This document shows positions 3,263 through 46,005 of a DNA stretch of 64,000 bases, piece after piece (within the stretch, counting starts at the first letter, position 1; each line of letters begins with the position of its first letter). Source of the DNA: Candidatus Lustribacter sp. (GTDB lineage: Bacteria > Vulcanimicrobiota > Vulcanimicrobiia > Vulcanimicrobiales > Vulcanimicrobiaceae); assembly GCA_965277805.1 (NCBI GenBank), contig OZ255842.1:2944001-3008000 (forward strand), given 5' to 3'. The notes under the pieces were generated by a model. The model was not told the DNA's origin, ran no database searches, and saw only the letters and a program-made list of their open reading frames with translations. Position numbers and translations under genes: made by a program.

Positions 3263-3582
3263 CGGTGAAACGGTCACCCCGGCCGTGTTCGCCGCCCCTT
3301 GCCCGCCGCTTCTTCCCCGCGCCGGCGCCGTCGTCTGTCAAAATGCTTACTAAGGCTAACAATTTGACTAAGCGTGAAGTCACAGTCTAGCGGCTTGGCC
3401 AGGGCACGGTAAAAGCGGTCCCGTAAGAACGCTCGTCCGGTATGCGGGCAGCCAGTCGATTGCGTCGGCGCTAATGCTGAACGGGCATCGGGACGACTAC
3501 TAGAGTGGGGTGGCGGCTGCTAAGGCGGCCTTCAAAGCATACCCTTTGGGTGTTTTTCGATCGGAGTCGGGACACGAGCACG

Positions 3583-26717: not shown

Positions 26718-28300
26718 TCTAAGAGAAGGCGCGATTCGGCGAGGTCGATGTCGTATTGCATGCGGCGGAAGACCTCGTCGGCGATCTCTCCGGCATGCCG
26801 CATATCATCGAGCGCGGTACGTTCGGCGTCGATGGTTTGGCGGATGAGGTCCCGTTCGAGGTTGTGTTGCGAGTCATCGGCCTGCGCGCTGTAGTGCTCG
26901 ATCGTCTCTTCGAAACGGAACCGCAGCCGTCCGGCGACTTCCCACTGCGCGGCCGTCGCAAAGGTGTCTTCCAGCTCTTTCAGCCGGGCGAGCGCGGCTT
27001 CGGCCACGCGCACCTGCGCGGTCGCGCGCGGCCGCTCGCCGGTGTCGTCATCGACGACGTGAAACCAGCGGATAAACCAGGGTAGCGTGAGGCCCTGTCC
27101 GAGCAACGTGACCAAGATCACCGCGAACGTAATGAACAGGATCAGATCGCGCGCGGGAAACGGTGAGCCGCCGTTCACGTCCTCCGGAATCGACAGCGCC
27201 GCCGCCAGCGAAACGATGCCGCGCATCCCCGACCAGCCCAAAACGAACGCCCACGACCACGGCAGCGTGCCGCCCTCGCGGGCGACGGTGCGGACGTTGA
27301 ACCGCCGCGTCAGCGCGGCCACCGCCACCCATGCGAGCCGCACCGCGATCACCGTGCCGGCGATAGCCCCGGCGTACTGCGCGAGCGTCGCCGCCGGGAA
27401 GATCGCCAACTCCGTAAAGATCGAGCGCAGCTGCAGGCCGAGAATGATGAACAGTGCCCCGTTGAACACGAAGAACAGCGTGTTCCAAACGCTGCGGCCG
27501 ATCAGGCGCGCCTCGGGCGTATACATGCCGCCGCCCTGACGGCTGAGGTACATGCCGCCCGCCGCCGCCGCCAACACACCGGAACCGCCCAGCCGGTCGG
27601 CGGCGAGATAGACGAGGAACGGCGTGATCAGCGTGATCGTCACAGAGATCACGTCGTCAGTGAGGTTGTGATCGTAGAGAAAGCGCGTGACCCGCCGGGC
27701 CACCACGCCGCCGGCGATGCCGATCGCGATCCCGACGATCGCGACGTAGGCGAATTGCGCGACCGCGCTGCCTAACGAGAACGTCCCGATCATCACCGCC
27801 GCGACGGCGAACTTGTAGAGCACGAGCCCGGTCGCATCGTTGATCAAGCTCTCGCCGCCGAGCACGGTGAGCAGACGCAGCGGCATGCCGGTTTCCTCGG
27901 CAATCGCGTCGGTGGCAACCGTATCGGTCGGCGAGAGGATCGCGCCGAGCACGAAGCCCACGTCGAGCGGCAAGCCGATGACCCAGTGGGCAACGAACGC
28001 CACGCTCACCGACGTCAGCACGACGAGCCCGGTCGCGAGCTGCACGATCGGCTTGATGAAACGTTTGAATCGGCGGAAATCAGTGACAAACGCGTCGCCG
28101 AAAATCAGCGGCGGCAAGAACACGAGGAAGACCAGATCCGGCGCCAGCTTGATGACCGGCACGCCGGGCACGAACGCCAGCGCGATGCCGCCCAGTAAGA
28201 ACACGATCGGGTACGGCTGACGCGTCCACTTCGCCACGACCGCCAGCGCCGCGATCAGCGCGAGGATCAGAAAGATCGTGACCTCGCCCGCTCCGCTCAA
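26714..28300 (-). CDS. Na+/H+ antiporter, CPA1 (NhaP/YjcE-like)
   Basis: FLPPLIF, LSPTD, GESLINDA, GMRGIVSLAAAL. Confidence 0.92.
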   Translation of the reverse strand: MSGAGEVTIFLILALIAALAVVAKWTRQPYPIVFLLGGIALAFVPGVPVIKLAPDLVFLVFLPPLIFGDAFVTDFRRFKRFIKPIVQLATGLVVLTSVSVAFVAHWVIGLPLDVGFVLGAILSPTDTVATDAIAEETGMPLRLLTVLGGESLINDATGLVLYKFAVAAVMIGTFSLGSAVAQFAYVAIVGIAIGIAGGVVARRVTRFLYDHNLTDDVISVTITLITPFLVYLAADRLGGSGVLAAAAGGMYLSRQGGGMYTPEARLIGRSVWNTLFFVFNGALFIILGLQLRSIFTELAIFPAATLAQYAGAIAGTVIAVRLAWVAVAALTRRFNVRTVAREGGTLPWSWAFVLGWSGMRGIVSLAAALSIPEDVNGGSPFPARDLILFITFAVILVTLLGQGLTLPWFIRWFHVVDDDTGERPRATAQVRVAEAALARLKELEDTFATAAQWEVAGRLRFRFEETIEHYSAQADDSQHNLERDLIRQTIDAERTALDDMRHAGEIADEVFRRMQYDIDLAESRLLLD

Positions 28301-29562
28301 CTGGCGCGCAACTTCGGATGGGCGCTAAACGTCCACACCCCCACGGCCGTGCAGATGATCCCCGCCACGATGAAGACCAGCCGCAAGTCGGTGAAGCGCG
28401 CGAGCGTCCCGATCACGAGCGCTCCGCCGGGAACCAGGCCGAGCGCGATCATCGAGTAGACCGAGATCACGCGTCCGCGCATCTCGTCGGGCGCCAGCGT
28501 CTGCACCAGCACGTTCGAGGAACCGATGAAGCTCTGCGTGCCGAGCCCGACGAAGCCGAGCACGAGCGAGCCCCACAGGACGCTGTCGGTAACGCCGAGC
28601 GTCGCGACGCCGAGCGAGGCGATGCAGCCCGAAACGAACCACAGCACCGCGCGCTTGCGCACGTTGAACGCCGCGATCAGGAGCGCGCCGACGACCGCCC
28701 CGATTCCGGACGCCGCCATCAACGCACCCAATCCGCGCGCGTCCGTGTGCAGCACGTGCACGGCGTACGCCGGCAGCAGAAACGTATACGAGCGCACGGA
28801 AAGCGCGGTGACGATCATCATCAAGTAGATCCAGCGCAACGCCGAATGCGCGTAGATGAAGCGCACGCTCTCGAGAAAGGCCGGCCAAAACGGCGTACGT
28901 TTGGTGGAACTCGGCGGCGAGGGCCGCATGAAGATCAGCGCCAGCACCACCGCGAACTTCACGATCGCGTTGACGATCATGCACGGTGCGATGCCGGCCG
29001 CGAAGATCAGGATTCCGGCCAGCGGCGGGCCCGCGACCGCCGGCGTGTTAAACGCGAACGAGTTCAGCCCAATCGCATTTCCCACCAGCTCGCGCGGCAC
29101 GAGGATCGAGACCCAGCTCTGCCGCGCCGGCGCATCGAACGATTGCGTCGCGGCCTGCATCGCGCTGATCGCTAAGATCACCGGCAGCGACGCGGTGTTG
29201 GTCAGCAGCGTCCCGGCGAGGATCACGGCCAAGATCATCGTCATGATGTTGGTGCTGAGCAAGATCGGACGGCGCGAGTAGCGATCGGCGAGAACACCTG
29301 CATAGGGCGAGGCGAGCAGGACCGGGATCATGCGCGATGCCCCGAGCAGCCCGATGTAGAACGAGCCGAGGCCGGCGTTCGGCGCGAGCCGCGCAACGTA
29401 GTAGCCGAGCGCGGTGAACTGGATCCACGTCCCGATGTTGCCGACGAACAGCCCGCTCCAGAGCAGCGAGAAGTCGCGGTAACGGAACGGTCCGAGCAGG
29501 CTTCCCTGGATGTTGGGGACGGGGCGTTCGCCCGCGCCGATCGCTTTTTCGGCCGCCGTCAT
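28297..29562 (-). CDS. MFS transporter
   Basis: FRYRDFSLLWSG, GVLADRYSRR, DEMRGRV; about 12 TM. Confidence 0.9.
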   Translation of the reverse strand: MTAAEKAIGAGERPVPNIQGSLLGPFRYRDFSLLWSGLFVGNIGTWIQFTALGYYVARLAPNAGLGSFYIGLLGASRMIPVLLASPYAGVLADRYSRRPILLSTNIMTMILAVILAGTLLTNTASLPVILAISAMQAATQSFDAPARQSWVSILVPRELVGNAIGLNSFAFNTPAVAGPPLAGILIFAAGIAPCMIVNAIVKFAVVLALIFMRPSPPSSTKRTPFWPAFLESVRFIYAHSALRWIYLMMIVTALSVRSYTFLLPAYAVHVLHTDARGLGALMAASGIGAVVGALLIAAFNVRKRAVLWFVSGCIASLGVATLGVTDSVLWGSLVLGFVGLGTQSFIGSSNVLVQTLAPDEMRGRVISVYSMIALGLVPGGALVIGTLARFTDLRLVFIVAGIICTAVGVWTFSAHPKLRAS

Positions 29563-30170
29563 CCGATCGTGCCGCGCGCGGCATCGATCAGCGCGATTGC
29601 CCCCGCGACACCGAAGCGCGCGACGTCCAAGACCAAATCGTAGTAGTGCGGATCGCCCCAGTCGAAATCGTACTGCTCGCGCGCGTAATTGCGCCGGCCG
29701 CCGTCGACGCGCGCGATCTCGGTGCGCGCCGCAGCCGGGGTCATGCCGAGCGATTCCGCGATGTGCGCGATGCGCCACTCGAGCGGCGCGGTGAGAAACA
29801 CGCGCAGCACGTCCGAGCGTTCGCGCAGCACGACGTTGCCCAGCCGCCCGACGACGATCACGTTGCCGCCGTCGGCCGCTTCGTGGATGAGGCGCTCGAT
29901 CTCGCGCTGGGTGATCGCCTCGAGGTCTTCGACCTCCGGGGCCGGCTGAAACGCTTCGGGCATCGCGACGCTGAGCGAGCGCAAGAGGCGCCGTCCGAAA
30001 CCGGTATTCTGGTACTCGATGCCCTCGACGGCTTCGGGCGAGGTGCCCAGCCGCGCGGCCACGACGACCGGCAGATCCTCGTCGAGCAAGCGATACCCGA
30101 GCAGCTCGGCGAGCCCGTGGATGACGGCCCGGCCGGCTGCCCCGTACTCGCGCGAAATCGTGATGATCAC
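29559..30170 (-). CDS. Cytidylate kinase-like family protein
   Basis: IITISREYGAAG, VIVVGR, RVFLTAPLEWRI, YDLVLD. Confidence 0.85.
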   Translation of the reverse strand: MIITISREYGAAGRAVIHGLAELLGYRLLDEDLPVVVAARLGTSPEAVEGIEYQNTGFGRRLLRSLSVAMPEAFQPAPEVEDLEAITQREIERLIHEAADGGNVIVVGRLGNVVLRERSDVLRVFLTAPLEWRIAHIAESLGMTPAAARTEIARVDGGRRNYAREQYDFDWGDPHYYDLVLDVARFGVAGAIALIDAARGTIG

Positions 30171-30222
30171 GAGCCCCTGCTTCCGCGGATGGACCGGCAG
30201 GTCCGGGTCGAAACGCAAACCC

Positions 30223-31236
30223 ATGCCGATCATCGAGACGCGCGAGCTGCGGAAGGTCTTCCGCTCCGTCAAGCGGACTCCGGGGGCCGGCGGCGCGCTC
30301 AAAACGCTCTTCTCCCGCGAGTACGTCGACAAGGTCGCCGTCACCGGCGTGACGATGTCGCTGGACGCGGGCGAACTGGTCGGCTACATCGGGCCGAACG
30401 GCGCGGGCAAATCCACCACGATCAAGATGCTCACCGGCATCCTCGTCCCGACCTCGGGAGAGGTGCGTGTCGCGGGCATCGTGCCGTATGAAAAGCGCAG
30501 CGAGAACGCGCGCAACATCGGGGTCGTGTTCGGGCAGCGCTCGCAGCTCTACTGGGATCTGCCGCTCGTCGAGTCGTTCGAACTTCTGCGCGCGATCTAC
30601 GACGTTTCGGCGCAGCGCTATCGCGAAAACATGGACTACTTTACCAAGCTGCTGGAAATGGACGACTTCCTCAACACGCCCGTGCGGCAGCTCTCGCTCG
30701 GTCAGCGCATGCGCGGGGATTTTGCGGCGGCGATGCTGCACGACCCGCGCGTCGTTTTCCTCGACGAACCGACGATCGGGCTCGACGTGGTGGCCAAGGA
30801 AGCGATTCGCACCTTCATCGCCGACATCAACCGCGAACGCGGCACCACGTTCATCCTCACGACGCACGACTTGGCCGACGTCGAGCGCTTGTGCCGGCGC
30901 ATCGTGCTGATCGACCGCGGCACGCTGATCTTCGACGGCGCCGTCGAGACGCTGCGCGATGAGTACGGCACGCACCGCACGCTGGTGGTCGAGCTTTGCG
31001 AACCCCAAACGCACGTCGAGATCGAAGGCACGGAGGCCGAACTCACGACGCCGACGATCGCGCGCTTCCGCTTCGACCGGCGCACGATGTCGGCCGAGGC
31101 GCTGGTCCGCCGCGTCACCGAATGCTACGCGGTCAGCGACATCTCGATCGAGGAGCCCGAACTCGAGTCGATCATTCGCCGCATCTACCGCGACGGGTAC
31201 GTCATCGAGCCCGACGGAGAACCAGCCGCCACGTGA
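30223..31236 (+). CDS. ABC-2 type exporter ATPase
   Basis: GPNGAGKST, VFGQRSQLYWDLP, LSLGQRMR, LDEPTIGLD. Confidence 0.92.
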   Translation: MPIIETRELRKVFRSVKRTPGAGGALKTLFSREYVDKVAVTGVTMSLDAGELVGYIGPNGAGKSTTIKMLTGILVPTSGEVRVAGIVPYEKRSENARNIGVVFGQRSQLYWDLPLVESFELLRAIYDVSAQRYRENMDYFTKLLEMDDFLNTPVRQLSLGQRMRGDFAAAMLHDPRVVFLDEPTIGLDVVAKEAIRTFIADINRERGTTFILTTHDLADVERLCRRIVLIDRGTLIFDGAVETLRDEYGTHRTLVVELCEPQTHVEIEGTEAELTTPTIARFRFDRRTMSAEALVRRVTECYAVSDISIEEPELESIIRRIYRDGYVIEPDGEPAAT

Positions 31237-32030
31237 AGTTCCGCGCCGCCCCGTATCTCGAGTTTGCCAAAAAGGCGTTCGCGCGTGAAGCAACCTACCG
31301 CATGGAGGTCTTCACCAATGTCGGTTCGCTGCTCGCACGTCTCTATTTAATGAAGATGGTGTGGGTTGCGCTCTACGCGCAGAACGTCGCGCCGGCGGGC
31401 GTACCGTTGCACGCTATCCTGACGTACACCTCGATCGCGCTCTTGATGTCGCTGGTACTCGAGATCGACGGCACCCGCATCATTCGCGACCGCGTGCGCG
31501 AAGGCTCGATCGCGACCGACTTGATGAAACCGATCAACCTGCCGCTCTACTTCTTCAGCGACGGCTTCGGCCAAACGCTGCTGCACGCGGTGCTGATCGT
31601 GCCCTCGCTACTGCTCGCGCTCTTTATCGTGCACATCGACGTGCCCTCAGCGCCGGTGCTGCTCGCGTTCGCCGTGAGTTTTGCGCTCGGCTACATTGTG
31701 AACTTCTTGATGAACTTCCTGATGAACTCGATCGCGTTCTGGACGCTCGAGACGTTTGCCATTCAGCTGATCATCCGCTGGGTGAGCGATCTGCTCGGCG
31801 GCCAGATCGTACCGCTGATCTTCTTCCCGGGCTTTCTGCAGCAAATCGTGCTCGCGCTGCCGTTCGCAGCCGTGTACTCAACGCCGCTGCTGATCTATCT
31901 CGGAAACATTCCCCCGAGCGCGTACCCCGCCGCCTTCGCAACGCAGCTCGCCTGGACCGCCGGCTTCGCGATCCTGGCGATGTTCGTGTGGCGCGGCGCG
32001 CTCCGGCGCGTCGTCGTGCAAGGCGGCTAG
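31233..32030 (+). CDS. ABC-2 family permease
   Basis: VREGSIATDLMKP, RRVVVQGG end; GTGA coupling to the ATPase. Confidence 0.88.
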   Translation: MKFRAAPYLEFAKKAFAREATYRMEVFTNVGSLLARLYLMKMVWVALYAQNVAPAGVPLHAILTYTSIALLMSLVLEIDGTRIIRDRVREGSIATDLMKPINLPLYFFSDGFGQTLLHAVLIVPSLLLALFIVHIDVPSAPVLLAFAVSFALGYIVNFLMNFLMNSIAFWTLETFAIQLIIRWVSDLLGGQIVPLIFFPGFLQQIVLALPFAAVYSTPLLIYLGNIPPSAYPAAFATQLAWTAGFAILAMFVWRGALRRVVVQGG

Positions 32031-33613
32031 ATCGACCAGCTGCGGATATCCCACGTTTCGACGACGGGGTTGGGGTCGAAGCCGTGCAGGTCAGGATTCA
32101 GGACTTGGATGTTGCGGAACCACCACAAGAAATCGATCGGCGCGTCGTGGATGACCAATGCTTCGATCGTTGCGTAGGCGCGTTTCCGCTCGGGGATGTC
32201 GTAGTTGGTGAGCGCCTCCGCCTGCGCGGCATCCATCGCAGGCGAGCAGTAGTATGACTGATTGTAGCCGCCGGGAGGACGGCTCGAGCACAAGAGCGTT
32301 GCCGAGTTGTCCGGGTCGATGCCCGAGTACCATTGGTAAATCGCGATTTGGTAGTTGCCGCGTGTGAGCGTCCCGCCCGCGGCGTAGCCGGCGTACATTT
32401 GCGTGCTCAGTTGCGCGCGCGCGTGGACCTCAACGCCGATACCGTGCAGTGCCTCTTGGATCTGCACGGCCAGCGAGCGCGAAACGGCCTGACTCTGCTC
32501 GTACACCATATCGAGCACGAGCGGCTTCGCCGCGGTATAGCCGAGCGCGGCGAGCTGCCGGCGTGCTTCGTCGGGCGCATAGGGCAAGTTGCGCAGTTGC
32601 GGATCGTATGCCCACATGAAGGCGGGCAGGTCGCCGGTGGCAACGGTGCCGGCGCCATACGTGAGATCGCTCGTGAGCCGGACCTTGTCGAGCGCCATCA
32701 CGAGCGCGCGGCGCAGTCGCGGATCCGCGGTCGGCCCGCGGCCCGAATTGATCATCAACCCTTCGTAGCCGTTGACGTTCGGCAACACGACGGCGACGTC
32801 GGGGATCGCGCGGATCGCGTTATAGGCACCGACCGAGGCCTCGTACATCCAGTCGGCTTCGTGCGCCCGCATCTGCTGCATCTCGGTATTCTCATCCGGT
32901 ACGAACCGCCAAATGAGATGTTTGATCTTCGGCGCGCCGAGATAGTACTGCTCGTTGCTGACGAACTCGATGCGGTCGCCGCGCACCCAACGCACGAACT
33001 TGAACGGACCCGTCCCGATCGGCGCCGAGTTGAACGGCACGTCGTTGAGGCTCGCGAATTTCACCAGGACGTGGGCGGGCAGAACGCCGTACGGGCTATC
33101 GCTCTCGCCGAACACCACCGAAACGAATGGCGCGAACCGTTTGCGCAAATGGAAGCGCACGGTTAGCGGATCGGGCGTGTCGACGCTACGCACGATGTCG
33201 TATCCGTGGCGAGAGATCACGTCATTGGCCGGATTCATGATTGCGTCGTAGGTGAACTTCACATCCCGGCTCGTGAACGGAACGCCGTCCTGCCAGCGCA
33301 CGCCCGGCCGAAGATGATACGTGATCGCCAGCCCATCCGCACTGATCCCGCCGTTCGCGCGCGACGGAATCTCGCGCGCCAGCCGCGGCACCAACGTACC
33401 GTGCGCATCGGCGGAAACCAGAATATCGGTCGTCAACCGCCCGATCGATGCTTCAACCGTCTGCGTCGCCAGAATCGGATTGAGCGTACGCGGAATATTC
33501 GCCGAGATAACCCGCAGCGTATCCGGAATCGTCCACGTATGCCGCACCGCCGCGGCGCCCTCCGGCGCAACCCGCGTACACCCCGCCAACGCCGCGAAGA
33601 GCAGCGCTGCCAA
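32027..33613 (-). CDS. Peptide/nickel ABC substrate-binding lipoprotein (SBP family 5)
   Basis: LAG|C lipobox; LRPGVRWQDGVPFTSRDVKFT; PIGTGPFKF. Confidence 0.9.
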   Translation of the reverse strand: MAALLFAALAGCTRVAPEGAAAVRHTWTIPDTLRVISANIPRTLNPILATQTVEASIGRLTTDILVSADAHGTLVPRLAREIPSRANGGISADGLAITYHLRPGVRWQDGVPFTSRDVKFTYDAIMNPANDVISRHGYDIVRSVDTPDPLTVRFHLRKRFAPFVSVVFGESDSPYGVLPAHVLVKFASLNDVPFNSAPIGTGPFKFVRWVRGDRIEFVSNEQYYLGAPKIKHLIWRFVPDENTEMQQMRAHEADWMYEASVGAYNAIRAIPDVAVVLPNVNGYEGLMINSGRGPTADPRLRRALVMALDKVRLTSDLTYGAGTVATGDLPAFMWAYDPQLRNLPYAPDEARRQLAALGYTAAKPLVLDMVYEQSQAVSRSLAVQIQEALHGIGVEVHARAQLSTQMYAGYAAGGTLTRGNYQIAIYQWYSGIDPDNSATLLCSSRPPGGYNQSYYCSPAMDAAQAEALTNYDIPERKRAYATIEALVIHDAPIDFLWWFRNIQVLNPDLHGFDPNPVVETWDIRSWSI

Positions 33614-37773: not shown

Positions 37774-38244
37774 ATGACGGACAACGAGCGACGGCACACG
37801 GCGCGGGGGGCGCAGCTGCGCCTATCCGTACCCCCGGACCCGCGTCTCGGCGCGTACGTTCGCCAAGAGCTCCTGACGTTCGCCGAGGCCAACGGGATCG
37901 GCGACGCAGACCTGACCGATTTCATGACGGCGGTGGGCGAAGCGCTCGCCAACGCCATCGAGCACGCGCACAGCATCGAGCCCATCGAAGTGACCGCCTG
38001 GCTGCTCGACGACCGGCTGTTCGCCGCGGTACGCGACCACGGCGTCGGGTTCCCGGTGAACGACCGTTCACTTGCGAAGGCGCTGCCGGATGCCTTCGCC
38101 GAACGCGGACGGGGCCTGCCGATCATGCAGCGATGCGCCGACCTGTGCAGCGTCCGCAGCATCCCCGGCGAGGGAACGCGCGTCACGCTCGGCCTGCAAG
38201 TCAACCGCCAGTCGGAGCACGATTTTCAGCGCTGCGTGGGGTAG
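37774..38244 (+). CDS. RsbW-like anti-sigma factor / HATPase_c_2 protein
   Basis: VGEALANAIEHA, VRDHGVGF, ERGRGLPIM, GTRVTL. Confidence 0.88.
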   Translation: MTDNERRHTARGAQLRLSVPPDPRLGAYVRQELLTFAEANGIGDADLTDFMTAVGEALANAIEHAHSIEPIEVTAWLLDDRLFAAVRDHGVGFPVNDRSLAKALPDAFAERGRGLPIMQRCADLCSVRSIPGEGTRVTLGLQVNRQSEHDFQRCVG

Positions 38245-38245
38245 C

Positions 38246-39439
38246 TCAAGCCGCCGTCAGGCGTAACGGGATCCGGGCGAAGCTGCGCAGCGAGTTGTTG
38301 AGATGAAGCACGGGCTCGCCCGCGGGCGCGATCGTGCGCACGCGGCGCGCGAGTTCGGTGAGGATGATCTCCCCTTCTATTTCCGCGAGTGCCTCGCCGA
38401 CGCAGCGGTGAATGCCTACGCCGAACGCGACGTGACCGCCGCTCTTGCGCCGGATGTCGAAGACGTCCGGGTCATCCCAGCGCCGTGGATCGCGGTTTGC
38501 CGCGGCGAAAAACACGAGCACCTTCTCGCCCTCCGTTAACGGTACGCCCGCGAGTTCGGTCGCGCGCGACGTCGTCCGGAAGAACGCTTGGACCGGCGAT
38601 TCCAGCCGCATCGCTTCATCGAACGCCGAGCGTGCAAGCGACGGCGTTTCGCGGAGCAGCGCCCATTGCTCCGGAAAGCGCGCGAACGCAACGAGCGCGT
38701 TCCCGATCGCCGCGATCGTCGTATCCAGGCCTGCCGAAAGCAGGGAACGCACGAGCATCCCGGCTTCTTCTTCGGTCGCCTCGCCCGCGTCGACCGCAGC
38801 GTAGACCTCCGCTCCGAGCCCATCCGTGGTGAGGCCGGCACGCGAGCACGATTGCATGATCCACGGGATCACCGTTCCGGCGCTCGCCATCGACTGCTCG
38901 ACTAGCGCGTTGCGCGGACCGACGGCGTTGAACACCATGTCGCCGTAGGGAGCGAGGTTCTCGCGGCCTTCGCTCGGCAAGCCGACGGCGTCGGGGAAGA
39001 CTTTCTCCGGAAACGCGCGCGCGATGTCGGCCATACCGTCGACATCGCGCCGCTCGAGCAGCGTTTCGACGAGCCGCTTCGCCTCGGCCTCGAAGACCGG
39101 CCGGAAATCGCGCAGCACTTGCGGCGTCATGACGCGCGCGAGGATCTTGTGCGTGCGCGTGTGCAACGGCGGATCCGCTTCGAGGATGATGCTCGGCACG
39201 CGCCATGGTTTTTCGTTGCGGAAATTCGCGAGGCCGACGCCCGCGCCCGATGCGAACGTTTCCCAGTCGAGGAGCACGGCGTTGACGTCTTCGTAACGCG
39301 CGACCGCCCAGCAATCGTACTGGCTGAGGCGCACGACCGGACCCAAATCGCGCAGCACCGCGTGCAGCGGATACGGATCGGTCATCGCGTCCGTCGAGTA
39401 CGGATCCACGTCGGAAACCGGAAACGTAACAGCGCTCAT
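38246..39439 (-). CDS. Cytochrome P450, CYP199A-like
   Basis: FGVGIHRCVG heme Cys. EKPWRVPSIILEADPP, LVRSLLSAGLDTT and ESPVQAFFRTT closely resemble CYP199A as I recall it. Confidence 0.9.
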   Translation of the reverse strand: MSAVTFPVSDVDPYSTDAMTDPYPLHAVLRDLGPVVRLSQYDCWAVARYEDVNAVLLDWETFASGAGVGLANFRNEKPWRVPSIILEADPPLHTRTHKILARVMTPQVLRDFRPVFEAEAKRLVETLLERRDVDGMADIARAFPEKVFPDAVGLPSEGRENLAPYGDMVFNAVGPRNALVEQSMASAGTVIPWIMQSCSRAGLTTDGLGAEVYAAVDAGEATEEEAGMLVRSLLSAGLDTTIAAIGNALVAFARFPEQWALLRETPSLARSAFDEAMRLESPVQAFFRTTSRATELAGVPLTEGEKVLVFFAAANRDPRRWDDPDVFDIRRKSGGHVAFGVGIHRCVGEALAEIEGEIILTELARRVRTIAPAGEPVLHLNNSLRSFARIPLRLTAA

Positions 39440-39466
39440 TTGCGCAACGCTTCCGTTCGCGGCAGT

Positions 39467-40402
39467 TCAGTCCTCCGGATGCTCCACCACGTCGATCATC
39501 GCTTCGACGACCAGCGGATCGAACTGCGTTTCGCGGTGTTTGACCAATTGGTCGAGGGCAAGCGAGGGTGACATCGCCTGACGATACGGCCTGCGCCCGA
39601 TCATGGCATTGAAGCAATCAGCGACGCTGACGATGCGCACATCCACTGTAATTTCGTCGCCGGCGAGGCGGTCGGGATAGCCCTTGCCGTCTGGCCGTTC
39701 GTGGTGGCTCGCAACCAGCGGGGCGAAGGGCCGCAGGCGTTCGACCTCGCGAACCATCGCGGCGCCGGCTGTCGTATGATCGCGCATGGTCGCGAACTCC
39801 GCCTCGGTCAACATACGCGGAGCGAGCAAGATCTCGCGCGGAGTCAGCGTTTTTCCCACGTCGTGGAGCAGCCCGCCACGCGCCACAAACAAACGCTGTT
39901 CCTCGGGAAGTCCCAACCGGAGCGCAAGCCGGCGGCACCACAGTGAAACGGCTCGCGAATGTTCGGCACTCAGCGGATCCGTATCATCGAGGCGCACCAA
40001 AAACGCCCCGATGGACTCGTCGATGCCGTCCGACATGACGTGTGTTTGCGGGTCGCCGGCGGCTTTCAGTTCAGAAAGTTTGGTTGCTATCGCGCGCTCG
40101 AGTGCCTGCAAGTCGCTCTCGAGTGAGTCACTGCCTAGCTTCCGGCGCCGCAATTCACGTTGCGCAACAGGGCACGCCGCCCGCAACAACGCTGCGATAT
40201 TCGGAAAGGCACCGTAGCGCTCGCACGCACCCTGTGCCCACTGCGCCAACTGCAATGAGCCGGAACCACTGCGGGCGTCGTCGAGACGCTCCGCAAACGC
40301 CATCGCCACGAGATGCACCATGACGGTCGGTTGGGCGTCAGTTTCCGCCACAAAGGCTGCCGCGAATTCTCGTCGCAGCGGTAGATCTGCCGCTACCATC
40401 AC
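39467..40402 (-). CDS. HD-GYP domain protein with helical N-terminal domain
   Basis: EHSRAV, LLHDVGK, HHERPDGKGYPD, VADCFNAM..RRPYR. GTG 40402 / ATG 40399 overlap the stop of the upstream gene. Confidence 0.9.
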   Translation of the reverse strand: MMVAADLPLRREFAAAFVAETDAQPTVMVHLVAMAFAERLDDARSGSGSLQLAQWAQGACERYGAFPNIAALLRAACPVAQRELRRRKLGSDSLESDLQALERAIATKLSELKAAGDPQTHVMSDGIDESIGAFLVRLDDTDPLSAEHSRAVSLWCRRLALRLGLPEEQRLFVARGGLLHDVGKTLTPREILLAPRMLTEAEFATMRDHTTAGAAMVREVERLRPFAPLVASHHERPDGKGYPDRLAGDEITVDVRIVSVADCFNAMIGRRPYRQAMSPSLALDQLVKHRETQFDPLVVEAMIDVVEHPED

Positions 40403-42522
40403 GTGGCGCTCCACGGCATGGCAAGCCGCCCGTATGGAATGGTCGCGATCATGCGAGCCCAGCCACCGAGCCCATTCGCGTGCATCTGTTCGAGAAGCGT
40501 CAGCAAAGACTCGCTGCGGCACTCCTGTTTTGATCCCGCAATCGCCGCCAGAACGTCGTGAAACGGGGCGAAACGCGGCCAGCGCACGATCTCCGTTGCG
40601 GTCGCATCCAGGAGTTCCCGCGCGCCGGTGATCCGCCCCAGCACGAGTGCCGCCAGTGCCAGAAGCAGTTCCGCGCGCAATGTTTCGACACTGTGCCTGC
40701 TTTCAACCGCCGCAAGTTCGCCATGCGCACATGCGAGCGCGTCGGGGGCGCCGGTCATGCCGGCGATCGCGCCGTACAGACCGATTTCCGCCCACCGAAG
40801 AGCGCGCGTCTCCGGCGAACTCTGCCTTCCCCCGCTTGCAACGAGCAGCGCATAGGCGTTGTCGAACGCACCCGACCACGTACTTTGGAGTGCCCGAGCG
40901 GGCATCAAGCCTTCCTCGACGTGCTGCAGGCTTGCTTCGATTTCTTCACCCGCAAGCTGAGCATCCAACTTCGCCAATGCAGGAGCGTTGCAGCGCTCCG
41001 CTTCGATCAGATATGTGCCGATCAGCGCGAAGCGACGAAAAATTGCGTTGCCGAGGCGCGCTGCGGCCTTGCCGATGTCGGTTAGCGCCTCGAGAGCTTG
41101 CAGCTGGTCGTCATTATATGAAAAAGCAACAACGTACGAGACGCTGCGAGCGACCGCGATGAGATCGTCGTTTCCGTGTTCCTGGGCAAGGGACGCCGCC
41201 AGTTGCGCGTGCTTCTGGGCTCGCTCAGGGTCGGCCGCGCTCAGGGCCACGAACGCCGCCCGCTGATGCACGGTCGCCCGTACGGCAACGTCGTCGATGA
41301 GCTCAAGCGCGGCAACGGCTTGGCCGACGCAGGCTTCGGCTTGCGCCTGCCGTCCGGCGCTTGCATGAGCCGTCGCGAGTGATGCCAAGATCGACACGGC
41401 GTGAGTGCCGCCCGCATGCCGCGAGAGCGCTTCAAGACGGTCGAATGCGTCGGTTCGCCCGCGCCGCAGCAGTTCGACCGCAAATGCGATGTCGATTCGC
41501 AAGCGTTGCGCTTCATCTCGCGCCAGCCGGAGAGCGTTCTCGAACCATGCCTCGGAAACGTCGTAGCGGCCGCGATAGGATTCATCGATCGCCTCGAGCA
41601 TGAGGGCGATCGGGATCTCGCGGCGTGTTTCCGGCGGAAGTGCGCTTATCGCAGCAAAGACGATGTCTGCTGCGTCACCATCGTGAAGATCGAATCCGTA
41701 ACAATCGAGGATCCGCTTCACGTCGATATGTGCTCGAGCCGCCACGTACCATTGCAATGCCGCGCCGAAATTGCCCGCCGCCTCCAATGATCGTGCGGCC
41801 GCCTCCCAGTTGCCGGCAGGAGCGCCGGGGTCTTCGCGCGGCGCGCTTACGTCGCCGGCGCCGGCGACGATCGCTCCGATGCAGCCGTCGTTGCGCTCCC
41901 GGAGCCATTCGATCAGCGCGGCGTCGGTCTCCAGTGACGCCGCAAGGTCGGGCACATCGCCGGCTTCGAACCGCAGTGCGAACTCGTCCACCGAAGCGTC
42001 CGCAAGTCCGGACGCCAGCCACCGCGGTAACGGCAACGCCGCCGTCGAACGGGTTCCGAGGATCCAGCGAACGTAGCCGCCGCTGGCTTCAGCCATGGCG
42101 ACGAGAAATCCAAACGCGGCGTCGCTTTCATCGATCCGATGTAACTGGTCGACCGCGATGACGACCGGCCTCTCGAGTTGTTCGGCCAACCACGTCGCGA
42201 TACTCCGCCACGAATTCGATTGGCGCCGCGCGCTGGAAACGGCTGCCGGCAAAAGCTTGAGCGCCCGGGGGGCTACGGGCGCCAACGCCTCCGTTAACCC
42301 GCGCGCAAACGCGGCGACGCCGGCGTGTTCCGCACCAACCGCGAACGTCACGACCGGTTCCTTGAGCATCGCGAGGTGCTGCTCGATGGCCACGCTCTTA
42401 CCGCATCCCGCGCGTCCATGAACCACCACGATGCGGCGGCGCGCCGACACGCGCAACCGCCGCGTGACGCGCGGCCGTGCAACTCGAGCCGGGGCCACAC
42501 TGCCCGGCGCTGCGGAGGTCAT
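40399..42522 (-). CDS. MalT-like STAND NTPase with TPR-like helical region, no C-terminal HTH
   Basis: VARPRV, Walker A GRAGCGKS, Walker B variant IAVDQLH, LGTRS, LRF; Ala/Leu-rich helical repeats. Confidence 0.7.
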   Translation of the reverse strand: MTSAAPGSVAPARVARPRVTRRLRVSARRRIVVVHGRAGCGKSVAIEQHLAMLKEPVVTFAVGAEHAGVAAFARGLTEALAPVAPRALKLLPAAVSSARRQSNSWRSIATWLAEQLERPVVIAVDQLHRIDESDAAFGFLVAMAEASGGYVRWILGTRSTAALPLPRWLASGLADASVDEFALRFEAGDVPDLAASLETDAALIEWLRERNDGCIGAIVAGAGDVSAPREDPGAPAGNWEAAARSLEAAGNFGAALQWYVAARAHIDVKRILDCYGFDLHDGDAADIVFAAISALPPETRREIPIALMLEAIDESYRGRYDVSEAWFENALRLARDEAQRLRIDIAFAVELLRRGRTDAFDRLEALSRHAGGTHAVSILASLATAHASAGRQAQAEACVGQAVAALELIDDVAVRATVHQRAAFVALSAADPERAQKHAQLAASLAQEHGNDDLIAVARSVSYVVAFSYNDDQLQALEALTDIGKAAARLGNAIFRRFALIGTYLIEAERCNAPALAKLDAQLAGEEIEASLQHVEEGLMPARALQSTWSGAFDNAYALLVASGGRQSSPETRALRWAEIGLYGAIAGMTGAPDALACAHGELAAVESRHSVETLRAELLLALAALVLGRITGARELLDATATEIVRWPRFAPFHDVLAAIAGSKQECRSESLLTLLEQMHANGLGGWARMIATIPYGRLAMPWSAT

Positions 42523-43892
42523 GAGTTGAAGGCTTGATTACCGTTCGGCGCGCCGATCCCGGTGGGTCCGTCGTAGCCGGGCTGGGACTGGCAAAAGTAC
42601 GCTATTGCGCACGTGCCGTTGCTTCCCGACGTGATCGAAAAGAACGTGTTTGCATGATTGTAGAGTTGCTGCGCGCCGGCGTAGTGTTCCGGATGCGGTC
42701 CCATGGCAATGATCGCTGAAACGATCGGAGACCCGATACTCGTTCCCCCAATGACAGTCCAGCCGCCGCTCGAACCATTTAAGATACTGTCGTACACGGC
42801 CATCCCGGTCGACGGGTCGGCGACGACGGCGAGATCGTTCATCACTCGCATCTTGCATCCGGGATCGTGCTGCCAATTCGGCTTCTTGATGAACGCGCTG
42901 CACCCACTGTTCGTCAACGGCCAAACGACTTCAGAGAGCCCGCCCGCTGACTCATACAGTGTCGTTCCGCCGACCGCAATGACGTACTCCGAGGAAGCGG
43001 GGAACATGGCCCCATAGCCGCGGTCTCCGGCAGAAGCGACCACTGCGACGCCCGGGTGATTGTAATGCGAGTCGTATTGGACGTTGTCCGAGGCTTCGGG
43101 AACACCGTAGCTGTTACTGATCACCTTCGCGCCGGCGGCTGCTGCACGGTCGACAGCCGCTGCGAGATCGGGAATGTTCGAGCTCGACGCTTCAACCAGC
43201 ATGATATTGCAGGCCGGGCAGACCGCAGAAACCGTCTCAATGTCGGTGGCGGCCTCGACGGCCCAGCCAACGTTCAGCGCCGGATAATTCGTGCTACCGT
43301 CCTGAGCTATTTTCTTAAAGCATCCATTCGCGGTAGTGCATGGCGGCAACCCGAAGGTGTTGCGATAGACGGCGAGGTCGGCTTCGGCCGCCGGATCGTC
43401 GAAGGCTACCACGACGGCCACCGTTACGTGTGCGCCGTCGTTGAGATTGAGCGGGGGTAAGTTGTAGATCTGCTGGATCCAGCCCGGCAACATACCGCTG
43501 AGCAGTTCGGCCGGCGTAGAAGAGGGCTGAATAGGCACATCGGTGCGAACCTTCGCGTGACAGCCAGCCGGGCCGGGCGTGTTTCCCGCGAGGGTACATA
43601 GAGCGCTGCTGGTCGTTCCGTTGACTTGACCGATGGCCGGAAACGCGCTTAAAGGTGCCGGAAATGCACTCAACGGCGCGGGAAACGCGCTCAACGGCGC
43701 GGGGAAAGCGCTTAGTGCTGCAGTATCCCGGCGATCGATCGTTTGGGTGGAGACCGATGCGAGCGGCCGGTGTGCCGATAGGGCGGCGGATTCGAAAGCG
43801 GACGTCGTCGCAGTCGTCGTGGGTAATCCGCCGGCGCATCCTGCGCACATCACGACAAAAACGAGGCCCGACATTGGCCAGCGAAAACGCAT
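42519..43892 (-). CDS. S53 (sedolisin-family) serine peptidase, probable lipoprotein, with heptapeptide repeats
   Basis: RBS GAGGAG; CAG|C lipobox; WAVEAATD (ExxxD), SAGD oxyanion Asp, GGTSIGSP, GYDGPTGIGAPNG Ca-binding motif. Confidence 0.9.
   Translation of the reverse strand: MRFRWPMSGLVFVVMCAGCAGGLPTTTATTSAFESAALSAHRPLASVSTQTIDRRDTAALSAFPAPLSAFPAPLSAFPAPLSAFPAIGQVNGTTSSALCTLAGNTPGPAGCHAKVRTDVPIQPSSTPAELLSGMLPGWIQQIYNLPPLNLNDGAHVTVAVVVAFDDPAAEADLAVYRNTFGLPPCTTANGCFKKIAQDGSTNYPALNVGWAVEAATDIETVSAVCPACNIMLVEASSSNIPDLAAAVDRAAAAGAKVISNSYGVPEASDNVQYDSHYNHPGVAVVASAGDRGYGAMFPASSEYVIAVGGTTLYESAGGLSEVVWPLTNSGCSAFIKKPNWQHDPGCKMRVMNDLAVVADPSTGMAVYDSILNGSSGGWTVIGGTSIGSPIVSAIIAMGPHPEHYAGAQQLYNHANTFFSITSGSNGTCAIAYFCQSQPGYDGPTGIGAPNGNQAFNS
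43635..43718 (-). repeat. 4 x 21-bp coding tandem repeat, (A/P)LSAFPA
   Basis: GCACTAAGCGCTTTCCCCGCG / CCGTTGAGCGCGTTTCCCGCG / CCGTTGAGTGCATTTCCGGCA / CCTTTAAGCGCGTTTCCGGCC. Confidence 0.95.
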
Positions 43893-43965
43893 AGTCTCCT
43901 CTGCATTTGTACGTTGGGAATCAGGTAAACGCCCAACCCTCATGGTCAAGCGATGGGTTGAGTTA

Positions 43966-43990
43966 TTACCCCCCTGCTTGCCGCATAAAC
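43966..43990 (-). promoter_or_regulatory. SigB/SigF-like promoter candidate for the S53 operon
   Basis: GTTTAT-N13-GGGTAA on the minus strand. Confidence 0.5.
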
Positions 43991-44019
43991 CGCCTAAACA
44001 TTTTCGCGATGTTCAAAGA

Positions 44020-44047
44020 TTGCAATGCGACACGCGTCACATTGTAA
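44020..44047. promoter_or_regulatory. CRP/FNR-family-like palindromic site
   Basis: TTGCAATGCGA-CACGCG-TCACATTGTAA; core TGCGA-N6-TCACA is 9/10 to TGTGA-N6-TCACA. Confidence 0.55.
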
Positions 44048-44075
44048 AGCTCGCTTTAAAAAACTCTGCGGACCC

Positions 44076-45056
44076 CTATAGATGGACCGGCACGAATTTA
44101 CGCGTGATCAGCGTCTCGGGATCGGGCTTCTTGTCGAGAATCCCGAGATCGACGAACGAAGCGGCGAGCACTTGGAGCGCGGCGTTATCCCAGGCGCCGT
44201 TGCTCGACATCATGTTCATGATCGCATCGTACGATTGCCCCATCGACGCCTCGCTGACTTCCTCGTATTTTGCCGCGATGCTGATCGTCTGGGCGCGGTG
44301 GCTTTTCATGTAGCCAACCGAACGGAACCAGCCATCGAGGAACTTCTTGACCTGATCGGGGTGCGCCGCCACGAAATCATTGCGCGCGAAGATGACATGC
44401 GTGATGAAATGCGGCACGGTCGAGCCGAAGTTCATCAGAATGCGGCCCTGCTGATGCTCTTGCATGTCGTAACCGAGTTCGGTGGCCGCGATGAAGCCGT
44501 CGACCTCGCCCGTCTTCAGCGCGGCCGTCTGGGCTTTCGTGTCGCCGAGCGCGACGGTCGCAATGCCCGTCGGACCCCATTGATTCTTCACCGCAATCTG
44601 TTTCGCGAGCCAGTCCGTCAGCGAGCCGGCCGTGGTCACGCCGATGCGTTTCCCCTTCAGATCGGCGGCGCTCTTGATCGGGGAGTCGCTCGAAACCATC
44701 AGCGCCATGTTGTACGGCGAAGCGGCCAGTTCGGCGACGCCGATCGCCGGCACGCCTTTGGCGAGAAACCCGAGTCCGGGTCCCGACCCCAGACCGATCT
44801 CGATGTTCCCGGACGTCAGAGCCTGCTGCACTTGACCGTCTCCGCGCAGCGCGGATGACTGCACCTGAATGCCTTCGCGCTGCCAGATGCCGGCCGCTTC
44901 GCCGACCTGGATCGCGAGAAACGCGAGCGACACCGCTTGCGCCGTACCGACGCGAATGACCGGCAGATCGGCGCCCGGCAGCCGCGCCGGCACGAGTGCG
45001 AGGCTGAGCGCGCACACGGCGATCACCGCGGCGATGGTTGGACGAAGAGCACGCAT
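44076..45056 (-). CDS. NitT/TauT (NMT1-like) ABC substrate-binding protein
   Basis: Signal peptide; DLKGKRIGVTTAGSLTD; FVAAHPDQVKKFL. Confidence 0.88.
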   Translation of the reverse strand: MRALRPTIAAVIAVCALSLALVPARLPGADLPVIRVGTAQAVSLAFLAIQVGEAAGIWQREGIQVQSSALRGDGQVQQALTSGNIEIGLGSGPGLGFLAKGVPAIGVAELAASPYNMALMVSSDSPIKSAADLKGKRIGVTTAGSLTDWLAKQIAVKNQWGPTGIATVALGDTKAQTAALKTGEVDGFIAATELGYDMQEHQQGRILMNFGSTVPHFITHVIFARNDFVAAHPDQVKKFLDGWFRSVGYMKSHRAQTISIAAKYEEVSEASMGQSYDAIMNMMSSNGAWDNAALQVLAASFVDLGILDKKPDPETLITRKFVPVHL

Positions 45057-45066
45057 ACGAATCTCC

Positions 45067-46005
45067 TTAGCGGGGTGCAGCGGCGTTTTCGCGGGGCACG
45101 GCGTGGAGATCGGCGCTTTTTCCGGCCTTCATCACCATCCCCGATATGGTATGTCCAACGATTTCTTCGGCGAGCTTCGCGCACGCGATCAGCGCGTCGA
45201 TGTCCGCGTCTATCGAATATCCCATCTGGACCGCCATGTGCGCGAAGTCCTCCGTCGAGATATTCCCGACCGCGCGCGGCGCGAACGGGCAGCCGCCGAG
45301 CCCGCCGATCGAGCTTTCGAAATCACGCACCCCGAGTTCGAGTCCGGTCAGCGCGTTGGCGATGCCCAGACCGCGTGTGTTGTGCAGATGCAAACCGAAC
45401 GTCATCTGCGGGAAACGCGGCTTCAGCATTTCGAGCGCCGCCCGGATCTCGCGCGGGCTCGCCATGCCCGTCGTATCCGCGAGGTACGTGAGCTCGATGC
45501 CGAGCTCGCCGTAAACTTCGACGATGTAAGCAACGCGCTCGACGTCGACCGGCCCCGAATATGGGCAGCCGAAGGCCGTGCCGACCACACCCACTAACCG
45601 GCTCTTGCTGCCGGCGGCAAGCGATGCGATGTCGCGCAAGACGGCGAGGTTTTTCTCCAGCGGCATGCGCACGTTCAGCTCGTTGAATGCATCGCTCGCC
45701 GCGCTGCCGACTTTGAGATCGTTGACCTCGGCGGCGAGGGCTGCTTCGGCACCTTTGGCGTTGGGAACGAACGCGCCGAAGCGCGTGCCCGGACGGCGCG
45801 CGATCCCGCGCATCACCTCGATCGCGTCGCTCATCTGCGGTACGACCTTCGGATGAACGAAGCTCGCGGCTTCGACCCGCTTGAGGCCGGTCGCACTCAA
45901 GGCGTCGATCAGTTCGATCTTGCGCTCCGTCGGAATAAAGGCGGCTTCGGTTTGGATCCCGTCGCGCGCGCCGACCTCGCTGATCGTGATGTGCTCAAAC
46001 GGCAT
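45067..46005 (-). CDS. Hydroxymethylglutaryl-CoA lyase-like (DRE-TIM) acyl-CoA lyase
   Basis: EVGARDGIQTE, SFVHPKVVPQM, LADTTG, HLHNTRG, GGLGGCPFAP..GNISTED. Confidence 0.9.
   Translation of the reverse strand: MPFEHITISEVGARDGIQTEAAFIPTERKIELIDALSATGLKRVEAASFVHPKVVPQMSDAIEVMRGIARRPGTRFGAFVPNAKGAEAALAAEVNDLKVGSAASDAFNELNVRMPLEKNLAVLRDIASLAAGSKSRLVGVVGTAFGCPYSGPVDVERVAYIVEVYGELGIELTYLADTTGMASPREIRAALEMLKPRFPQMTFGLHLHNTRGLGIANALTGLELGVRDFESSIGGLGGCPFAPRAVGNISTEDFAHMAVQMGYSIDADIDALIACAKLAEEIVGHTISGMVMKAGKSADLHAVPRENAAAPR

Follow-up and report, generated by a model that had tools for sequence, protein, structure and literature searches.

A candidate signaling cassette of a STAND receptor, an HD-GYP protein and an S53 lipoprotein protease in Candidatus Lustribacter

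Introduction

STAND regulators are known to act through fused DNA-binding or killing domains. In MalT and the LAL regulators, i.e., the large ATP-binding STAND proteins of the LuxR family, a STAND-class P-loop NTPase is followed by a helical-repeat sensor; MalT senses maltotriose, and it is restrained by MalY, Aes and MalK. In the RRNPP systems (Rap-Phr, NprR, PlcR-PapR, PrgX and Rgg), a cytoplasmic receptor of the TPR type is encoded beside an exported precursor in which a short motif occurs once or, in some cases, several times, and the output is either a helix-turn-helix (HTH) domain or an enzyme. STAND NTPases with effector partners are, in addition, common in defense. Here we analyze three overlapping genes from Candidatus Lustribacter sp. 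(GenBank assembly GCA_965277805.1, contig OZ255842.1, positions 2,944,001 to 3,008,000; this whole stretch of 64,000 nucleotides is referred to as the window). The genes encode a peptidase of family S53, a MalT-like STAND protein and an HD-GYP protein:

42519-43892, minus strand: S53 gene, 457 amino acids; ATG at 43892, with GAGGAG 5 nucleotides 5' of the ATG
40399-42522, minus strand: STAND gene, 707 amino acids
39467-40399, minus strand: HD-GYP gene, 310 amino acids from the ATG; Pfam HD_5

The STAND protein of the window shares with MalT and the LAL regulators the STAND-class P-loop NTPase and the helical-repeat sensor, and its sister proteins end in a GerE/LuxR HTH. It is itself a stripped-down form of this architecture, in that it has no HTH, no winged-helix segment (an identity that we assign by position) and a Walker B motif with DQ in place of the acidic pair DD or DE; its output is predicted to be a separate, docked HD-GYP enzyme. 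The resemblance to the RRNPP systems, as outlined above, is one of logic only, namely a candidate exported precursor with a motif, encoded beside a receptor. In contrast to those systems, the receptor here is a STAND ATPase, in which a Pfam scan (E ≤ 1) detects no Rap, NprR, PlcR, PrgX or Rgg family; as candidate precursor there is a lipoprotein tether, either fused to the presumed processing protease or encoded next to it; a phosphodiesterase acting on a second messenger is the predicted output; the hosts belong to the phylum Eremiobacterota; and the release, import and binding of a peptide are hypothetical. With the HD-GYP enzymes RpfG, PmGH (4mcw), PA4781 (4r8z) and V-cGAP3 (5z7c), the window protein has in common a complete domain and the invariant signature residues. 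Unlike them, it has no REC, GAF or other known sensor domain, and carries instead a rare adaptor of ~125 residues that is predicted to bind the STAND protein. Likewise, the window peptidase and the sedolisins (MEROPS family S53: kumamolisin, sedolisin and TPP1) share the catalytic residues and the fold, whereas the former is without a prodomain of the Pro-kumamolisin type, is a predicted lipoprotein, and has a tether with repeated motifs and a conserved Cys pair. A published account of either the STAND/HD-GYP pair or the S53 tether motif was not found in open-access papers and preprints, and a look-up of the terms MalT, TPR, ATPase and AAA in a preprint census of HD-GYP architectures finds none of them.

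From the analysis presented below we conclude that the STAND and HD-GYP proteins probably constitute a functional pair. The best-supported interpretation is that they act as sensor and effector, and that HD-GYP and LuxR HTH are alternative outputs of the same receptor lineage, because in sister cassettes the receptor ends instead, or additionally, in a LuxR HTH. No output domain other than the HD-GYP partner is seen in the window operon. The complete explanation, in which the three genes form one operon encoding a lineage-specific signaling cassette, with a STAND-HD-GYP output and a peptide loop that depends on the S53 protein, is one that we favor with modest confidence.

Probable coupling of STAND receptors to HD-GYP partners

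Relatives of the STAND protein were collected in an alignment-driven scan of one genome per species with one peptide pattern, which yielded 80 loci (cited here by L numbers) with 81 STAND copies, locus L009 holding two cassettes in tandem. Because it is based on a single pattern, the scan undercounts. Most of the loci (74/80) are labeled Eremiobacterota, Vulcanimicrobiota, Baltobacteraceae, Elarobacter or Velthaea. The other six are all from metagenome-assembled genomes (MAGs), namely three from 'uncultured bacterium', two from Limnocylindrales and one from Janthinobacterium. A word-indexed search with the STAND protein gave 16 matches, one of which is named Eremiobacteraeota. In several assemblies, two or three cassettes that belong to different clades are present; two assemblies, for example, account for three loci each (L023/L053/L074 and L026/L050/L080). 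In the tandem locus L009 (1422-8210), genes for STAND, HD-GYP and an apparently frameshifted S53 protein are followed by those for an N-terminally shorter STAND and a second HD-GYP.

Conservation of the triad was a prediction of the initial annotation of this DNA, and the synteny search bears it out. An HD-GYP gene lies directly downstream of the STAND gene, on the same strand, in 70 of the 81 copies; an S53 gene flanks 57 of the 81, directly upstream in 22 and downstream in 35, in the latter case usually after the HD-GYP gene. Eleven copies are without an HD-GYP neighbor. Four of these are cut by the end of the contig, and the remaining seven, in which at least 5.6 kb of downstream sequence is available, all carry a GerE HTH. 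Thus, no sufficiently long copy is without both outputs. Both an HTH and an HD-GYP neighbor are found in four copies (L058, L061, L064 and L070).

The two proteins are also found as one polypeptide. STAND and HD-GYP were flagged as a single open reading frame (ORF) in eight loci, and in six of these (L015, L045, L051, L065, L076 and L078) an in-frame junction could be read, at which the conserved ...ALP end of the STAND protein runs into the HD-GYP protein. The flagged fusions in L026 and L062 were not counted, since each lies beside an apparently frameshifted stretch. On a tree of 64 rows, obtained by a quick search with 18 partial or frameshifted rows left out, the fused forms occur at no fewer than three places.

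To assess the association of the separate proteins, residues 230-707 of the STAND protein were co-folded with the HD-GYP protein. The median complex score is 0.65, and the best of three controls scored 0.00. This score expresses the confidence of the model and is not a measurement; a mark of 0.65 is reached by 116 of 157 solved complexes and by 2 of 215 mismatched pairs, a calibration that is rough here, where our own alignments were supplied. Agreement between the runs extends to at least 41% of contacts, and for the partner the predicted local distance difference test (pLDDT) is at least 80. In the predicted interface, the last helix of the STAND protein and its ATIPYGR tail (residues 669-704) face residues 6-38, 54 and 61 of the HD-GYP protein, a stretch that includes the best-conserved part of the HD-GYP adaptor:

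40411-40518, minus strand: STAND C-terminal helix and tail, residues 669-704, ...GLGGWARMIATIPYGRL, predicted HD-GYP docking site (complex prediction; motif conserved in the family)
40016-40399, minus strand: N-terminal adaptor domain of the HD-GYP protein, residues 1-128; no Pfam family

The three proteins also co-diverge. Pairwise distances are correlated between STAND and HD-GYP (0.95, 51 loci), STAND and S53 (0.91, 41 loci) and HD-GYP and S53 (0.89, 37 loci; Mantel p = 0.001 each), values to which shared descent contributes.

Synteny, gene fusions, complex prediction and co-divergence thus lend computational support to the earlier suggestion that the HD-GYP protein is the output in trans of an HTH-less STAND protein. 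A lack of interaction between the two proteins would have spoken against it; the fusions, and a complex prediction that passes its controls, support an interaction instead.

The STAND protein has no HTH

By sequence, the STAND protein is matched by Pfam AAA_16 and AAA_22, and by the NCBIfam MalT model over residues 12-133 only, with a score of 29.6 against a cutoff of 537; a sequence search of the PDB gave no match at E ≤ 1. By structure, the top Foldseek matches are 6mfv, a STAND-TPR protein, and then 8bob, i.e., MalT. The AlphaFold 2 (AF2) model has a pLDDT of 91.7 and a predicted template modeling score (pTM) of 0.88. It consists of a nucleotide-binding domain (~17-160), a small helical domain (165-223), a disordered link of 10 residues (225-234) and a solenoid (237-693). 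The features of interest are:

42394-42417, minus strand: Walker A, GRAGCGKS, residues 36-43; G39, G41 and K42 invariant or nearly so
42145-42165, minus strand: Walker B, VVIAVDQ, residues 120-126; D125 kept, Q126 in place of the second acidic residue
40444-41814, minus strand: TPR-like helical solenoid, residues 237-693, presumed by analogy with MalT to be the ligand sensor; all-helical in AF2 with pLDDT >90, Foldseek matches of the TPR/LGN/APC type

Among 64 relatives, the Walker B pair is DD in 24, DE in 12, DS in 11, DQ in five, DA in three, DN in two and something else in seven. That is, DD or DE is present in only 36 of the 64, and D followed by S, Q, A, N or G in 22. We infer that the STAND protein of the window probably binds ATP and hydrolyzes it poorly.

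The Walker A motif, the D-to-Q variant of Walker B, the helical repeats and the absence of a LuxR HTH had all been read from the sequence in the initial annotation, and each of them is confirmed; in particular, neither the Pfam nor the NCBIfam scan detects an HTH. The STAND gene ends 11 residues past the conserved IP motif, and the HD-GYP gene begins at its stop. The orthologue in L001, which is ~77-82% identical and has the same chromosomal neighbors, shares the features of the window copy. This orthologue and most other relatives end at the same ...GG.A....(I/L)P motif, and it is exactly there that the HTH-bearing relatives append a GerE domain, which was found in 12 of the 44 relatives whose C-terminal tails are long enough for testing. 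Because the STAND stop overlaps the HD-GYP start, and because the relatives share the end motif, the missing HTH is not the product of a local frameshift. Relatives also have an insert of 86-112 residues, located between window residues 220 and 238. The insert, which from its position we take to be the winged-helix region, is absent only in the window, L001, L053 and L073.

The HD-GYP protein is complete and carries a rare adaptor

The HD-GYP protein matches Pfam HD_5 at 8e-37, with 127 bits against a cutoff of 27, and its PDB matches are 5z7c, 4mcw and 4r8z. The motifs LLHDVGK and HHERPDGKGYP are intact, and H179, D180, H208, H232, H233, E234, D237, G238, G240, Y241 and P242 are invariant in 66 of 66 HD-GYP relatives. 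The catalytic domain maps as follows:

39512-39991, minus strand: HD-GYP catalytic domain, residues 137-296 from the ATG (178-337 of P0003); Pfam HD_5

Out of 1.84 billion proteins, a profile search with the N-terminal adaptor retrieved no more than 70 representative clusters, of which 33 reach E ≤ 1e-10. In most of these, the protein has ~315 residues, with the adaptor at the N-terminus. In three proteins of 941-1100 residues the adaptor immediately precedes a C-terminal HD-GYP domain; the N-terminal parts of these three have no Pfam match and, to judge from their length, may be STAND. A further database protein, P0150 (529 residues), has a GerE HTH at 35-79, the adaptor at 160-285 and HD-GYP at 294-438. 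Possible explanations are that a STAND-HTH-HD-GYP fusion is represented here by a fragment, or that the gene was miscalled.

In nine loci (L002, L016, L027, L040, L045, L052, L056, L075 and L077), GGDEF or GAF-GGDEF-EAL genes are found in or beside the cassette, and Pfam confirms GGDEF-type genes in three of them (L002 9232-10140, L016 4712-5989 and L075 4227-5993). The GGDEF-type gene of L002, a 63% relative, directly overlaps the HD-GYP stop. It is from these neighboring GGDEF/EAL genes, and from nothing else, that cyclic di-GMP (c-di-GMP) emerges as a likelier substrate of the HD-GYP protein than cyclic GMP-AMP (cGAMP).

Two further arrangements were noted among the relatives. In L016, L040, L052, L075 and L077, the GGDEF-type gene stands directly upstream of the STAND gene, the place occupied by the S53 gene in other clades, and these five loci have no S53 match. 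In L003 (8343-10649), on a contig from the MAG labeled Janthinobacterium, the HD-GYP frame runs without a stop into an OprB-type porin domain, to give 769 residues; this frame may reflect a read-through, an assembly join or a mis-binned contig.

The S53 lipoprotein bears a repeated motif in its tether

In a sequence search of the PDB, the S53 protein matches kumamolisin with E 3e-14, and the E/D/D/S catalytic residues are aligned. The top Foldseek match is 1t1e (E 2.6e-22), and comparison of the model with the kumamolisin chains 1t1g, 1sn7, 1zvj, 1sio, 1gt9 and 1siu gives TM-scores (TMt) of 0.74-0.78 at ~29% identity. Residues E213, D217, D290 and S385, which align with E78, D82, D164 and S278 of kumamolisin, are invariant in 46 of 46 aligned relatives; the Ser-Glu-Asp triad and the oxyanion Asp are thus present on a subtilisin-like fold. 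No prodomain appears in the Pfam scan, and the alignments with kumamolisin begin at its mature domain. High confidence in the AF2 model is limited to the part that starts near residue 105; residues 1-104 are disordered. From its lipobox motif the protein is predicted to be an extracytoplasmic lipoprotein; the lipobox residue Cys19 is conserved to at least 90% among the 46 relatives, which have LAAC or LAGC lipoboxes. Two features precede the protease domain:

43836-43892, minus strand: signal peptide ending in lipobox Cys19 (VVMCAGC), read from the translation
43636-43715, minus strand: four tandem LSAFPA(P/I) in the disordered tether between lipobox and protease domain, from repeat scans; Tandem Repeats Finder (TRF) call at 43636-43712, period 21, 3.7 copies

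The PLSAFPA repeat is therefore real, being recovered by TRF and by repeat scans alike as four copies of LSAFPA(P/I). The repeat stretch has a pLDDT below 50 in AF2, and the motif proline P78 is at least 90% conserved in the 46 relatives. More generally, the tethers carry the motif x-[R/S/G]-A-[L/I/F/M/V]-P at a median distance of 21 residues from the lipobox Cys. The pattern [RSGHKT]A[ILMFV]P is found in 43 of 45 tethers, whereas 1000 shuffles gave 4.8 on average and at most 14; the sequences are related, and hence no probability is attached to this difference. Of 55 tethers, 12 have the motif in tandem copies, the repeat unit being 7, 8, 9, 14 or 21 residues long. That the unit length differs between separate clades points to independent amplifications. 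Repeat calls in L042 and L058 were left uncounted, as they are not repeats of the motif.

The variant of the motif follows the clade of the STAND protein. LSAFPAP is found in the clade of the window, TLRAIPIYSPSPTP in the clade with S53 downstream, and NISRALPA.SPTP in that with S53 upstream; GASALPG, SLSAMPGD and DSPEGLPG are variants of the HTH-only clade, and ARAIPIG is the variant in L068, L072 and L079. Close relatives of the S53 protein in the database show the same repeat pattern, e.g., GLGALPAPLGAFPAPLGAFPA and PLTAVPW x 4. Signal peptides are also present in ten more distant S53 proteins of ~390-490 residues that belong to other lineages, in which inspection by eye showed no repeat of this kind.

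The motif also occurs apart from the protease. Small lipoprotein ORFs of 66-99 residues, as called, comprise a signal peptide, a lipobox and the motif in one or two copies, without a protease domain. Such ORFs lie between the HD-GYP and S53 genes in L025 (9306-9563), L026 (8774-8962), L039 (9321-9587) and L042 (9146-9364). Where the S53 gene is missing, they are found in two loci only among the 24 copies scanned, namely L057 (8774-9022; 82 residues from the second Met) and L061 (3703-3903), in which a small ORF with DASSPLFAA x 2 stands between the STAND-HTH and HD-GYP genes. The architecture of the small lipoproteins, including a short C-terminal tail, is kept in five database proteins, P0209-P0213 (60-82 residues), that are encoded on different contigs. 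Its conservation in these five homologues suggests that the motif peptide is selected as an independent unit.

Proposed mechanism and alternative explanations

In the mechanism that we propose, a cytoplasmic MalT-type STAND receptor, comprising a P-loop ATPase and a TPR-like solenoid, would hold an HD-GYP phosphodiesterase, with the last helix and tail of the receptor binding the dedicated N-terminal adaptor of the enzyme. The state of the receptor, as set by its ligand and by ATP, would be converted into an altered hydrolysis of a cyclic dinucleotide, most likely c-di-GMP. On the other side of the membrane, the extracytoplasmic S53 lipoprotein would cut the motif-bearing tether and thereby release short peptides; these would be taken up and bound by the STAND solenoid, so as to complete a peptide-signaling loop. 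In some relatives, the separate small motif lipoprotein may be the substrate of the S53 protease. The direction of signaling and the identity of the substrate are conjectural elements of this scheme, as are the release, uptake and binding of peptides; the loop that they compose, which we draw by analogy with Rap-Phr or PlcR-PapR, is accordingly put forward as a tentative proposal.

If extended to the paralogous cassettes, the scheme would amount to peptide communication outside Firmicutes, in which an S53 lipoprotein frees either its own tandem pro-peptides or those of a neighboring small lipoprotein, each motif variant (LSAFPAP, TLRAIPI, SRALPA, GASALPG, ARAIPIG and others) serves as a private channel, and the re-imported peptide switches the HD-GYP or HTH docked to, or carried by, the STAND receptor. 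This extension is speculative, and we hold it with somewhat less conviction than the loop itself. Were it true, Eremiobacterota would join the bacteria with peptide quorum sensing, in this case through orthogonal channels, and signals between cells would be read out directly as c-di-GMP turnover. The tethers and mini-lipoproteins that bear the motif offer a concrete lead to the ligand. The coupling of receptor and enzyme has implications of its own. A receptor lineage that switches between a LuxR HTH, a docked HD-GYP and a fused HD-GYP is a natural experiment in the exchange of output modules, and c-di-GMP signaling would gain a new kind of input, namely an ATP-gated receptor that presumably oligomerizes like other STAND proteins. 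The cassette is present in multiple copies in a poorly understood and rarely cultured soil phylum, where it may be a major signaling device.

Several observations weigh against the proposed mechanism, for which the support is computational throughout. The tether is disordered in the AF2 model, in which the motif is not placed in the cleft of the protease. The docking motif of the STAND protein is conserved also in HTH-only relatives without an HD-GYP partner, and thus it is not specific for HD-GYP. Shared descent inflates both the co-divergence of the three proteins and the motif statistics. Among solved structures, the best match to the HD-GYP domain by sequence is 5z7c, an enzyme specific for cGAMP rather than c-di-GMP, and the 64-kb window contains no GGDEF, EAL or PilZ gene. 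Neighbor clustering across the 80 loci detects no peptide importer or other transporter conserved with the cassette, and 13 STAND copies with at least 2 kb on each side have no S53 gene, which is therefore not an obligatory component. These last two points are among those that speak for the sensing of nutrients or products without a dedicated signal peptide. In that case the S53 protein would be an ordinary degradative protease, and the STAND protein would sense a cytoplasmic metabolite or imported products of proteolysis and adjust c-di-GMP, or transcription in the forms with an HTH; the tether motif would be an anchor, a linker or a site of self-release. Consistent with this, the S53 catalytic family extends well beyond the cassette, with at least 6844 matches at E ≤ 1e-10 among 8000 scored candidates, and includes proteins of ~400 residues named from Thermomicrobiales and Dehalococcoidia; the ten distant members inspected are those without the repeated motif; and MalT-type relatives with an HTH stand directly upstream of the S53 gene, like a regulator beside its target. 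However, product sensing leaves unexplained why tandem amplification of the motif took place in more than one clade separately, and with different unit lengths, why conserved small lipoproteins contain little beyond a signal peptide and the motif, some of them beside an intact S53 gene, and why the class of motif tracks the clade of the receptor. We thus consider this account possible, though on balance unlikely.

The relation between the STAND and HD-GYP proteins could also be the reverse of that proposed, with the HD-GYP protein acting as a 'trigger enzyme' that releases or inhibits the receptor according to the level of c-di-GMP, in the manner of MalY, Aes and MalK on MalT. The four relatives that have both an HTH and an HD-GYP partner are in line with this idea, and they imply that HD-GYP is not simply a replacement of the HTH; so is the occurrence of the docking motif in HTH-only relatives, as is the fact that 8bob, the second structural match of the STAND protein, is MalT in complex with negative regulators. 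In the window and in most relatives, however, the STAND protein has no other output domain, and its regulation would have no downstream effect; moreover, covalent fusion in at least six loci suits a sensor-effector pair better than a reversible anti-activator. We therefore regard the reversed relation as improbable. Still more so, to the point of being very hard to sustain, is a role of the cassette in phage defense or conflict as an Avs-like STAND system, in which the protease and the HD protein would be the effectors. Such a system could account for the several copies per genome (three loci from each of two assemblies), and the Avs3 structure 8dgc is among the weak structural matches of the STAND protein (E 2.4e-3). 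Against it, PADLOC models are matched by neither the STAND nor the S53 protein, and the HD domain has only weak generic Cas3-HD matches; that domain is in fact a complete HD-GYP with all residues of the signaling type. The protease, because it is predicted to be exported as a lipoprotein, is unlikely to be an intracellular effector. In addition, the neighbors are housekeeping genes, the window locus is syntenic with L001, and a look-up of terms in two large STAND surveys finds no mention of HD-GYP or S53. A sensor-effector pair of STAND and HD-GYP, with the HTH as the alternative output, remains the reading that we prefer for the core of the cassette.

Genomic context of the locus

The two overlaps between the genes are exactly as originally noted. 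At 42522-42519, the sequence ATGA contains the STAND start, which overlaps the S53 stop; at 40402-40397, GTGATG is made up of the STAND stop TGA (40401-40399) and the HD-GYP start ATG (40399-40397), with the GTG at 40402 as an alternative start of the HD-GYP gene. The longest ORF of the S53 gene extends to a TTG at 43949. Upstream of the ATG lies a spacer:

43893-44075, minus strand: upstream spacer and presumed promoter region, 183 nucleotides; no ORF assigned, ends in the GAGGAG ribosome-binding site

A promoter scan returned 0 promoter-like sites, the sigma-70 consensus being unmatched, and terminator-like sites are no more frequent than in shuffles. An Rfam scan of 38000-45200, which would include a c-di-GMP riboswitch, identified no family; its three matches are all below the gathering score and unrelated.

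The earlier impression that the block is less GC-biased than its flanks holds at third codon positions, where the GC content (GC3) of the S53, STAND and HD-GYP genes is 0.70, 0.72 and 0.71, respectively, and that of the flanking genes 0.80-0.81. In bulk GC, the drop, to 0.58-0.61, is confined to the S53 gene and its upstream spacer. GC3 values of 0.70-0.74 are also seen in other genes of the window, and the GC3 of the cassette is below that of its neighbors in 23 of 58 related loci, i.e., this is not a trait of the family. A mobile cassette, as a reading of the low GC3, was rejected on this ground and on that of the synteny with L001.

On the far side of the spacer from the S53 gene is a gene for an NMT1-like binding protein. 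At the other end, a cytochrome P450 gene (38246-39439, minus strand) begins 27 nucleotides 3' of the HD-GYP gene, on the same strand, and may be co-transcribed with the cassette. A P450 gene adjoins the HD-GYP gene in the window and in the closest orthologous locus, L001 (9160-10191), and is absent from that place in other cassettes. Beyond the genes of the cassette, no neighbor family is present in more than 15 of the 80 loci; those that recur, namely Nramp, MgtE, a PucR-like regulator, glutamine synthetase and a decarboxylase, are housekeeping genes, and their recurrence reflects clade-level synteny.

Elsewhere, the window has the gene content of an ordinary metabolic chromosome. A gene for an OppA-like solute-binding protein (SBP_bac_5), at 32030-33613 on the minus strand, is ~6 kb away from the cassette. 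Also on the minus strand, at 28300-31293, is an ORF of 998 residues with a GC3 of 0.70, like that of the triad; its C-terminal 400 residues constitute a transporter of the MFS_3/MFS_1 type, and its N-terminal ~600 residues match no family. Finally, five consecutive large ORFs on the plus strand (405, 511, 365, 665 and 610 residues; 3505-7348 and 9875-13701) are without a Pfam match and have an unusual composition, with GC content of 0.49-0.57 at first (GC1) and 0.52-0.61 at second codon positions (GC2). These five are flanked by two genes for TMEM260-like O-mannosyltransferases, at 1248-2762 and 7380-8846.

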